From Psychrobacter sp. HD31 (GTDB lineage: Bacteria; Pseudomonadota; Gammaproteobacteria; Pseudomonadales; Moraxellaceae), in the NCBI RefSeq assembly GCF_051097895.1, contig NZ_CP142525.1, forward strand, positions 2,130,001 through 2,162,000: a DNA stretch of 32,000 nucleotides. The letters are read 5' to 3'. Below are positions 18,001 through 20,016 of this stretch, piece after piece. Made by a program: the position numbers and the translations under genes. The notes beneath the pieces were generated by a model. That model was not told the origin of the DNA. It did no database searches and saw only the letters and a list, made by a program, of their open reading frames with translations. Position 1 is the first letter of the stretch; each line of letters opens with the position of its first letter.

Positions 18001-18888
18001 GCAACAGCTGATGAAAAGAAACTAGTTAACGCCAAAGAGATTGCTAAAACAATCAATGAATCAGGCTTTACCCTAAAAGCTAACAGTGATGTAGGAGAGC
18101 AAATCAACCCAGGTGATGAAATAGACTTACTAAATGGAGACAACGTTGCCATAGAAAGAAATGGCACAGACATCACCATTAATGCGGAAGACACCACCGT
18201 ATCAGTTGGTGATGGCTTAACCGTCACACCAACACTAACAGATAGCACAGACGGTGATGCTGGCGTAGACGACTACAAAGTAGAACTGAGTCAAGATACG
18301 CAAGACAGCTTAGACAAAGCAGACAGCGCATTACAAGAAATTGTGACTCAAATTGATGGAACCGAAGTTAAAACGCTTGACCAAGACGACAACGTTGCCA
18401 ACTTTAAAACAGGAGACAACATCGTCCTAACGGATGACAGCGGTAGCATCAAAATAGCCACAGCAGACGAAGTAGAGTTTACTAAAGTGACCGTTGGTCC
18501 AGTAGTAACAACGGCTACTGGCATCGACATGGGTAGTCAGAAGATTACGAACCTAGCAGCCGGTACCGCAGGTACAGATGCCGTGAACGTAGACCAACTA
18601 AAACAGTATAGTTCAGCGGCGACAACAGAAGTCGTATCAAATGGCAATACCTCAGTCACCAAAGAAACAGGCTCAAATGGACAGACCATCTACCAAGTAG
18701 CAGCAGAAGACACCACCGTATCAGTTGGTGATGGCTTAACCGTCACACCAACACTAACAGATAGCACAGACGGTGATGCTGGCGTAGACGACTACAAAGT
18801 AGAGCTGAGTCAAGATACGCAAGACAGCTTAGACAAAGCAGACAGCGCATTACAAGAAATTGTGACTCAAATTGATAACCGAAGTTAA
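12064..18888 (+). CDS. TAA N-terminal fragment (signal peptide plus passenger, no anchor)
   Basis: 2274-aa ORF. AAGGA Shine-Dalgarno at 12053-12057. It ends at a TAA created by the frameshift (..QIDNRS*). This is an alternative representation of the pseudogene above. Confidence 0.8.
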   Translation: MNHVYKVIFNKSTGAFTAVSEFAKGHVKSSKKVAIGEKFPSIKIKRMTLSALVSSVLLALSGQVSAAAGGSTATQPAGGTLPTNQKLGGYWNPATSTPGTADAECGPDGNLSCWWTWGTEFTGVDANGTPIVSMATSVAEGGAGGVLGNGVKTSNTILAGVAEGIDDYDAVNVKQLNEALVSAGGNTYFHANDADATNDGVTNTTNYGKTNDAAGAQGSNSVAAGVNAQATNGGAVAIGYESSAKGANSFAVGENSEAVANNSIAIGADSKANTTYTTAIGRATNATGSGATAIGGGTASGAGLAASATGSGSVAIGGGYTGNAGAKANGKEAIAIGNGSATDFDESIALGANSIVTTDKNVTGVNPLNSDITADPAAAWTSTAAAVSVGDTSNADNTNWVTRQITGVAAGTEKTDAVNVAQLTAVANAPLIFTGNTNNDTADSTNNYQANNGTERQLNETLNIIGSNTSVTGLTEDTSEETAGDTYSSKNIQTVVTDGQVQIQMSTNPEFNTVKVGGTNPIVISDTGIDMGSGKNRKISNLAAGIADNDAVNVSQLKASKWDIAGNDGNAVADGVNKDDKVSFKNGNATTSSVTGGPSAFDVKYDVNVDDDTIKIVDNKLEVNTDAIASQTELTYKANNDNGSKKTVSLADGLDFTNGTNTTAEVGDNGVVKFNVTTEELAVADGKVSSTTSDAPASAKSIADAINNTGWNVQASADGGELGGTSSKELVQAGEDVNLKAGKNIKVTQAGQNFTFATKDDVEFNTVKVGGTNPIVISDTGIDMGSDQNRKISNLAAGTADNDAVNVSQLTAVAEELDKKNYFHVNKSNAEVTSSVNDNRDDVDGVGNATGAYASAAGYAAKATGRHTAALGSFANATATRSTATGAFSKATELNATATGAVSKATNKFTTATGAYSHATEVRATSLGSYARATGRNSTATGYNAKATAIGATATGMASQATSIRATANGFNAKATDTRATATGSFANSTKTRATANGYFSEATGVGASSIGAHAQASGSYATALGGGSRSSNAPNASGDFSTAIGFKSKATDDSSFAAGTNALASAKQSIAIGEDTQANGAQSISIGTGNIVNGNNSGAIGDPTTIDGNNSYSLGNNNNIAQDNIFVVGNEVTTTQANSVVLGNESTDRAATAETNATIGDTTYSGFAGVGSVENGIVSVGAAGKERQIINVAAGEVSSTSTDAINGSQLYAVANELDRETYFHVNGTGADASSDSTASADNLANVEGIGGATGVNALAAGINAKASGENSSSVGYNNTVENKNSQAFGNENVISGTYPFIGATKNTAVGSNNKTTDSTLTSTFGGGNTVDQSIYASTIGANNKVTEGKAVGVYGTLNTIKKSTGISVTGGDNTVTDATNTFVFGGSNTVEDSSGNIGIVGAGNDVDSTNTLSIVGDNNKVSGVGADGASGIHGSDNTVNNVSNVRVIGNNNTATADSALIFGNDSTISGKDSGVFGSSNEVSGENTFVVGNNVNEATQDNNVILGNNSSEKSATSADGKATQVTNATINDVTYGDFAGTASAIVSVGKEGAERQITNVAPGAITATSTDAINGSQLYAVANELDRETYFHVNGTGADASADPTASADNLANVEGIGGATGVNALAAGLDTMAAGISAVSIGHKANASAEDVVAIGMKAGKGTSGNDRSVLIGKEAGQNSVAVSNKKENVYIGFSAGEDAEGGWNTMIGTQNAGAGVKGNGNAGIGQATLYRAEGNNNSGLGPYAGNNSKGNNNTYSGFYSGFRSDGDYNTYSGSQAGYKATGDNNVALGKLAGREITADRATALGAYAKATEDAGVALGSNSVADRVAITNGSATNDVTDVNSQVYALTTATADSITAIENTAKTTYAAVSVGGDNGNGTIYNRQITNVAAGGADNDAVNVAQLKAVANAGWDLYQTDNTTANLKDNVKAGDKVIFADSDTLTASVETNAEKNETTIKYNAKTTDLVVNTNGSVNFPATADEKKLVNAKEIAKTINESGFTLKANSDVGEQINPGDEIDLLNGDNVAIERNGTDITINAEDTTVSVGDGLTVTPTLTDSTDGDAGVDDYKVELSQDTQDSLDKADSALQEIVTQIDGTEVKTLDQDDNVANFKTGDNIVLTDDSGSIKIATADEVEFTKVTVGPVVTTATGIDMGSQKITNLAAGTAGTDAVNVDQLKQYSSAATTEVVSNGNTSVTKETGSNGQTIYQVAAEDTTVSVGDGLTVTPTLTDSTDGDAGVDDYKVELSQDTQDSLDKADSALQEIVTQIDNRS
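13591..13735 (+). repeat. Intragenic dispersed repeat, copy 1 (connector/neck module EFNTVKVGGTNPIVISDTGIDMGS..NRKISNLAAG..DNDAVNVSQL)
   Basis: ~145 bp, about 94% identical by hand alignment to 14350-14494. The first ~72 nt are identical. Confidence 0.85.
14350..14494 (+). repeat. Intragenic dispersed repeat, copy 2 (pairs with 13591-13735)
   Basis: Same module 759 bp downstream, in frame. Confidence 0.85.
15667..15849 (+). repeat. Intragenic dispersed repeat, copy 1 (STDAINGSQLYAVANELDRETYFHVNGTGADAS...NLANVEGIGGATGVNALAAG)
   Basis: 183 bp with only 4 differences from 16768-16950 by hand alignment. Confidence 0.9.
16768..16950 (+). repeat. Intragenic dispersed repeat, copy 2 (pairs with 15667-15849)
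   Basis: Same module 1101 bp downstream, in frame. Confidence 0.9.
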
Positions 18889-20016
18889 AACGCTTGACCA
18901 AGACGACAACGTTGCCAACTTTAAAACAGGAGACAACATCGTCCTAACGGATGACAGCGGTAGCATCAAAATAGCCACAGCAGACGAAGTAGAGTTTACT
19001 AAAGTGACCGTTGGTCCAGTAGTAACAACGGCTACTGGCATCGACATGGGTAGTCAGAAGATTACGAACCTAGCAGCCGGTACCGCAGGTACAGATGCCG
19101 TGAACGTAGACCAACTAAAACAGTATAGTTCAGCGGCGACAACAGAAGTCGTATCAAATGGCAATACCTCAGTCACCAAAGAAACAGGCTCAAATGGACA
19201 GACCATCTACCAAGTAGCAGCAGAAGACACCACCGTATCAGTTGGTGATGGCTTAACCGTCACACCAACACTAACAGATAGCACAGACGGTGATGCTGGC
19301 GTAGACGACTACAAAGTAGAACTGAGTCAAGATACGCAAGACAGCTTAGACAAAGCAGACAGCGCATTACAAGAAATTGTGACTCAAATTGATGGAACCG
19401 AAGTTAAAACGCTTGACCAAGACGACAACGTTGCCAACTTTAAAACAGGAGACAACATCGTCCTAACGGATGACAGCGGTAGCATCAAAATAGCCACAGC
19501 AGACGAAGTAGAGTTTACTAAAGTGACCGTTGGTCCAGTAGTAACAACGGCTACTGGCATCGACATGGGTAGTCAGAAGATTACGAACCTAGCAGCCGGT
19601 ACCGCAGGTACAGATGCCGTGAACGTAGACCAACTAAAACAGTATAGTTCAGCGGCGACAACAGAAGTCGTATCAAATGGCAATACCTCAGTCACCAAAG
19701 AAACAGGCTCAAATGGACAGACCATCTACCAAGTAGCAGCAGAAGACACCACCGTATCAGTTGGTGATGGCTTAACCGTCACACCAACACTAACAGATAG
19801 CACAGACGGTGATGCTGGCGTAGACGACTACAAAGTAGAGCTGAGTCAAGACACGCAAGACAGCTTAGACAAAGCAGACAGCGCATTACAAGAAATTGTG
19901 ACTCAAATTGATGGAACCGAAGTTAAAATGCTTGACCAAGACGACAACGTTGCCAACTTTAAAACAGGAGACAACATCGTCCTAACGGATGACAGCGGTA
20001 GCATCAAAATAGCCAC
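18187..20016 (+). repeat. Tandem array, ~3.5 copies of a 519-bp (173-aa) in-frame unit within the TAA stalk
   Basis: The unit start gaagacaccaccgtatcagttggt recurs at 18187, 18706, 19223 and 19742, giving periods of 519, 517 and 519. Across the array I see only three substitution sites (18285/18804/19321/19840 = A/G/A/G; 19852 C versus T; 19929 T versus C) plus the 2-nt deletion in copy 2. Confidence 0.95.

Follow-up and report, generated by a model that had tools for sequence, protein, structure and literature searches.

Why is a gene for a single giant surface protein found in the chromosome of Psychrobacter sp. HD31 as two overlapping reading frames, and is this split likely to exist in the living cell? 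The locus lies in a 32,000-nt stretch of contig NZ_CP142525.1 (positions 2,130,001 to 2,162,000, forward strand), referred to here as the window, whose numbering is used throughout. A scan of the window for open reading frames (ORFs) returned an upstream ORF of 2274 amino acids (aa) and a downstream ORF of 993 aa, which match exactly the GenBank proteins XWW58203.1 and XWW58204.1 (the latter also WP_434353434.1) of Psychrobacter sp. HD31 (Table 1). Between them, the two ORFs carry the parts of a trimeric autotransporter adhesin, and they are separated by the absence of two nucleotides, GG, from the second unit of a tandem array of long repeats. We infer, with a probability of about 0.6, that this is a real and recent 2-bp deletion in a 3263-aa adhesin gene, and that the adhesin is OFF in the sequenced culture.

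An earlier note on this DNA had placed a 2-nt deletion in copy 2 of the array alone. Alignment of the four copies bears this out, as GG is present in the other three and its absence from the second is the sole indel. CAAATTGATGGAACCGAAG is the reading in three units, and the second unit, without GG after 18876, instead yields QIDNRS followed by a stop. In the window, positions 18865-18892 read ACTCAAATTGATAACCGAAGTTAAAACG, and the junction can be written as ...ACTCAAATTGAT joined directly to AACCGAAGTTAAAACG. The version with GG, CAAATTGATGGAACCGAAGTTAA, has exactly three occurrences (18349, 19385 and 19904), with none expected in shuffles. With the variant at 18868 counted in, successive copies start 519, 517 and 519 nt apart. 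The three GG units share identical flanks with the deleted unit for more than 150 nt on either side, and the array holds, besides the deletion, only three variable nucleotide positions, one alternating between A and G and two private to copy 4. The earlier reading of copies 1, 3 and 4 stands for the GG in all three, but its final ..KT fails for copy 4, the last and partial unit, which through one of its private changes reads ...GTTAAAATG (QIDGTEVKM) and not ...AAAACG (KT). The codon lost here, GGA, specifies the glycine in a conserved TQI[D/N]G motif, and the three sister units all encode ..ALQEIVTQIDGTEVK.. at this point. As k-mers, ATTGATAACCGAAG and ATTGATGGAACCGAAG would tell the two junction alleles apart.

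When GG is put back in silico, a single ORF of 9792 nt and 3263 aa results, whose sole stop is terminal, exactly as had been predicted. The division of domains between the two halves also agrees with the earlier description of a signal and passenger upstream and an anchor downstream. Pfam assigns ESPR, YadA_head and YadA_stalk to the upstream ORF, and YadA_stalk and YadA_anchor to the downstream ORF. The N-terminal signal typical of type Vc secretion is represented by ESPR (PF13018, E = 1.4e-11, aa 1-33), together with a hydrophobic core and a cleavage-like site at aa 66. The passenger has the expected head, neck and stalk regions (YadA_head, E = 1.1e-34; YadA_stalk, E = 1.3e-61 and 3.8e-50), and the downstream ORF ends in a membrane anchor of the usual length of about 60-70 aa (YadA_anchor, PF03895, E = 2.4e-16). 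In sequence matches to the PDB, the heads correspond to solved structures of UspA1, AtaA, BpaC and YadA, the necks to SadA and BadA, and the anchor to the Hia translocators 2gr7 and 3emo and to the AtaA anchor 9vnj. A good Shine-Dalgarno sequence, AAGGA, lies 9 nt before the adhesin ATG, and a strong terminator-like hairpin follows the downstream ORF. Signal, passenger and anchor therefore lie in one chain only with GG re-inserted, since the premature stop parts them as sequenced. A downstream frame that stays open for 993 codons and carries on the same repeat units in +1 cannot, judging from its make-up, be the product of chance. On this evidence from sequence, the gene is by descent a trimeric autotransporter adhesin of the type Vc secretion pathway and, as sequenced, a disrupted one.

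In the explanation proposed here, the 2-bp deletion in the second unit of the array would stop translation three codons later. The 2274-aa product would keep the Sec/ESPR signal and the passenger and lack the beta-barrel anchor, so that neither outer-membrane export nor trimerisation would be expected, and the 993-codon anchor remainder, which has neither a ribosome-binding site nor a signal peptide, is unlikely to be produced. Type Vc secretion depends on a covalent link between passenger and anchor within one chain. Because anchor and passenger are on separate chains, the adhesin as sequenced should not be displayed. With intact units on either side of the lesion, the frame could be restored by RecA-type loss of units, or by gene conversion templated on any of the three GG copies.

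Table 1. Features of the adhesin locus of Psychrobacter sp. HD31, with positions as numbered in the window.
Feature	Position	Strand	Remarks
AT-rich region upstream of adhesin gene	11666..12063	+	Contains secA terminator hairpin, T9, two weak sigma-70-like sites, AAGGA
secA terminator hairpin	about 11700-11745	+	Inside adhesin upstream region
Two weak sigma-70-like sites	11930-11984	+	Inside adhesin upstream region
Upstream ORF, 2274 aa	12064..18888	+	XWW58203.1; ESPR, heads, stalk/neck modules; ends ..QIDNRS, then stop
ESPR extended signal peptide, aa 1-66	12064-12261	+	Upstream ORF; predicted cleavage between ..GQVSA and AAGG
YadA-type head regions	about 12703-13125 and 14602-15747	+	Upstream ORF
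Tandem array of 519-bp (173-aa) stalk/neck unit, 3.5 copies	18184..20015 (about)	+	From copy alignment
Sole stretch with both frames open, 8 codons	18863..18888	+	GTG ACT CAA ATT GAT AAC CGA AGT TAA
Downstream ORF, 993 aa	18872..21853	+	XWW58204.1 / WP_434353434.1; stalk modules and anchor
Missing-GG site	18876..18877	+	Sister GG at 18358-18359, 19394-19395, 19913-19914
Premature TAA stop from frameshift	18886..18888	+	3 codons past deletion
YadA/Hia-type membrane anchor, aa 933-993	21668-21850	+	Downstream ORF
Intrinsic-terminator-like hairpin, then T run	21874..21903	+	Downstream of adhesin gene
tRNA gene	29233-29306	-	Sole Rfam match in window

The polarity and relative age of the change can be read from the array and from more distant adhesins. 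Adhesins of other Psychrobacter species, of Halomonas/Vreelandella and of Testudinibacter also contain the stalk module ADSALQ..VTQI[D/N]G.[EDKT]V, and the glycine lost from unit 2 of HD31 is present in every match listed of the homologous module. Because both the sister units and these homologous modules in other bacteria keep the glycine, the GG reading is taken as ancestral and unit 2 of HD31 as derived. The 2-nt deletion is the only lesion in 9.8 kb, the pattern of a recent pseudogene with a single lesion; the rest of the 9792-nt frame is intact, and the event is therefore considered recent. The alternating site (18285, 18804, about 19321 and about 19840) reads A, G, A, G from unit to unit, a pattern which suggests that the array grew by duplication of a two-unit (1038-bp) block. 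The deletion appears to postdate the array's latest duplication, because A, G, A, G suggests a two-unit duplication, yet one unit alone is deleted. No templated origin was found for it: the mutant junction has no ectopic donor of at least 12 nt, and the site shows no quasi-palindrome.

The earlier note named three alternatives, true inactivation, on/off variation or an error of assembly, and these are still the right ones to weigh. It is possible, if somewhat unlikely, that the true gene is intact at 9792 nt and that the missing GG is a consensus error left by assembly or polishing in a near-identical 519-bp repeat beyond the reach of short-read polishing. The length of the source contig (2,174,416 bp) suggests a long-read-based assembly, everything else in the adhesin gene is intact, and the repeat-rich ataA gene was likewise hard to sequence (PMC3498257). 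Typical residual long-read errors are, however, homopolymer-length errors (PMC8812927), and the lesion here is a whole GG dinucleotide with no long homopolymer. The three sister units were read correctly in the same context, and a systematic base-calling error is disfavoured because a single copy is affected though four copies share that context. Single-nucleotide differences between units were resolved by the assembler, so the reads evidently spanned the array; reads from sister units misplaced at this site would be expected to add GG, not to remove it. Two short-read contigs in Logan (SRR29889421), from a strain with 99.9% identity to HD31, correspond to 5818-11681 and 24735-29468 of the window, and over 10,598 aligned nt they differ from HD31 by 10 mismatches and no gaps, spanning 106 homopolymer runs of at least 5 bases. 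Because no gap separates it from this independent short-read assembly, the unique DNA of the HD31 assembly is taken to be accurate at base level and not prone to indels. Several points nevertheless weigh against a real deletion. The comparison covers unique DNA only and does not vouch for the repeat array, and it says nothing on repeats, where polishing errors tend to persist; residual long-read errors are reported to be left behind in repeats in particular, since short reads find no assignable position there (PMC8812927). Searches brought up no read data, second assembly or close orthologue covering the site. In addition, a GG deletion without microhomology has no obvious mutational mechanism.

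If the deletion is real, the halves might still yield an adhesin through recoding (+1 ribosomal frameshifting or transcriptional slippage), or by being made separately and cooperating. The sole point in favour is that neither frame is interrupted anywhere but here. Against it, the frames overlap by eight codons only, and programmed frameshifting was rejected, as a +1 shift is needed and no codon of the overlap would re-pair in +1 at the P site. This stretch has no slippery site or distinctive predicted fold, its A/T runs are too short for transcriptional slippage, and the same peptide comes from the three sister units with no shift at all. An internal restart of translation at the downstream ORF was likewise rejected, in line with the earlier claim that it has neither a signal peptide nor a credible start: there is no Shine-Dalgarno sequence at TTG 18872 or ATG 19046, a sequence check revealed no promoter-like site at the junction, and no signal peptide was found in the N-terminus LITEVKTLDQDD... 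Given also the covalent link that a type Vc passenger needs, recoding or a working split appears very unlikely, and we give it next to no weight. A sub-case of the real deletion is a variant made reversible by recombination, in which the frameshifted unit coexists in the population with intact or shorter alleles. The site itself, TTGAT[GG]AACC, is no homopolymer or simple repeat, as had been pointed out, and thus differs from simple-sequence contingency loci. A T9 tract lies at 11806-11814, some 250 nt before the ATG of the adhesin gene, and A7 tracts lie at 13996-14002 and 20759-20765 within the ORF; these are the only tracts in or near the gene, and, being short and away from the lesion, they do not account for the split. 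Reversion of a real OFF allele would nonetheless be possible without such a tract. Reversibility was assessed by a sequence-level simulation of crossovers, in which units a and b are the 517-nt stretches following sites 1 and 2. Crossover between units a and b deletes 517 nt and gives an in-frame ORF of 3090 aa, and that between units a and c deletes 1036 nt and gives one of 2917 aa, both ending in the anchor. The near-identity of the units also implies ongoing homogenisation or recent duplication, recombination with ON/OFF states has been proposed for the repetitive badA gene (PMC8859334), and the tandem-repeat number of the Haemophilus Cha adhesin varies and modulates adhesion, according to its citation in PMC3498257. 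Crossovers in the remaining registers, half of those possible, retain the defect, however, and one frameshift in one genome fits a dead-end mutation equally well. Such a variant is regarded as improbable. The stronger proposal, a metastable OFF state that reverts at high frequency by unit loss or gene conversion, and so a case of long-repeat phase variation in an environmental Psychrobacter, is put forward as a speculative, distinctly improbable one. A real, recent deletion therefore remains the preferred reading.

Comparative data for the locus are sparse. Protein, genome-contig and metagenome searches returned no orthologous adhesin locus in other genomes. Exact-product look-ups with both halves and with the neighbouring genes found only the two short Logan contigs of the sister strain, neither of which reaches the adhesin gene. 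The contig covering 5818-11681 (L001) ends 16 nt past the secA stop, within the secA terminator hairpin and just before the adhesin upstream region. No near-identical adhesin fragment from SRR29889421 was present among the protein search matches, and the sister strain may have a different allele at this locus, or none. Junction DNA had no matches in metagenome scans, in which the C-terminal protein reached at most 38% identity. Apart from HD31's own fragments, protein searches and an exhaustive HMMER search found nothing above about 50% overall identity; the HMMER search did recover giant relatives that are intact and 2900-5900 aa long, with identities of no more than about 35-45%. The protein similarity search gave nothing above about 1740 aa, and even a query taken from within the 2274-aa HD31 protein failed to retrieve that protein; giant proteins may be invisible to that search. 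For this reason, the lack of close relatives is supported chiefly by the exhaustive HMMER search. In a genome-contig scan that matched only a few octapeptide patterns of SecA, in a collection that lacks HD31, the closest SecA match, Moraxella lincolnii (79% identity), showed no adhesin gene after secA and no synteny. The next SecA matches among those retrieved, a Moraxella metagenome-assembled genome (76%) and M. oblonga (75%), also had no synteny around secA. HD31, with its 2.17-Mb genome, may belong to a poorly sampled lineage of the Moraxellaceae, and a literature search found no paper on the strain.

In Halomonas campaniensis, the consecutively tagged genes FF32_02365 and FF32_02360 lie on one 4.07-Mb contig. 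Their products are a 907-aa protein made up of stalk only and a 1131-aa protein with an anchor, the latter starting MKTLDENDNVANF.., midway through the same stalk module as in HD31. This pair looks like another split adhesin gene of the same family.

The genes around the HD31 adhesin are ordinary chromosomal ones, with phoX, tatC, an rlmD-like gene, mutS, an mmcB-like gene and secA upstream, and genes for a TonB-dependent receptor, an alanine symporter, lemA and TPM-domain proteins downstream. An apparent truncation of PhoX at the start of the window was rejected as a lesion, as the gene is cut by the window edge.

For annotation, GenBank carries the two halves of one 3263-aa adhesin gene as separate proteins; both entries should be presented as one frameshifted gene, or the locus re-sequenced. 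Before HD31 is used for work on adhesion or biofilm formation, expression of the adhesin should be checked, a precaution recommended in the BadA literature. Should the lesion prove real and revert through recombination between repeats, the locus would be a simple model for long-repeat ON/OFF switching.

Among known systems, badA of Bartonella henselae is close to the HD31 gene in kind. Both are giant (badA 8.7-13.2 kb), highly repetitive trimeric autotransporter adhesin genes with a frameshift and a premature stop. In B. henselae ATCC49882 var-1 and Berlin-I, the frameshifts are due to 262-bp and 1-bp deletions and surface expression is lost; recombination between the repeated neck/stalk domains of badA has been discussed as a source of phase variation and a route to ON/OFF states (PMC8859334). 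Unlike badA, which belongs to a different phylum-level lineage and lies in a badA island with pseudogenes, the HD31 gene has a 2-bp deletion inside a perfect tandem array, and the loss of expression demonstrated experimentally for badA contrasts with a split known in HD31 from sequence alone. The adhesin prototype yadA is a pseudogene in all Yersinia pestis and, like the HD31 gene, has a small frameshifting indel with the rest of the gene retained (PMC9248902). It is, however, a small, plasmid-borne gene whose defect is fixed in the species, whereas the HD31 defect is found in a single genome.

Within the Moraxellaceae, AtaA of the non-pathogen Acinetobacter sp. Tol 5 shares with the HD31 protein its giant size (3630 aa in AtaA) and its long-repeat stalk, and the head and anchor of the HD31 protein match the solved AtaA fragments 3wp8 and 9vnj. 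The extremely conserved stalk repeats of AtaA, 58-243 aa long, hampered its sequencing (PMC3498257). AtaA differs in being intact and functional, and its overall identity to the HD31 protein is low. Adhesin genes of Moraxella catarrhalis, in the same bacterial family, are switched ON/OFF or between high and low expression, with uspA1, uspA2, uspA2H and mid/hag switching via G(n), A(n) and AGAT(n) tracts (PMC7302503). The HD31 head resembles the UspA1 structures 3ntn and 3pr7, but the HD31 site, unlike the M. catarrhalis loci, has no G(n), A(n) or AGAT(n) tract. Because of badA (PMC8859334) and the yadA gene of Y. pestis (PMC9248902), adhesin genes of this class inactivated by frameshift are already well documented, and the case of the HD31 gene, whether one lesion disrupts it or the assembly is in error within its repeats, is an ordinary one of a kind already known.

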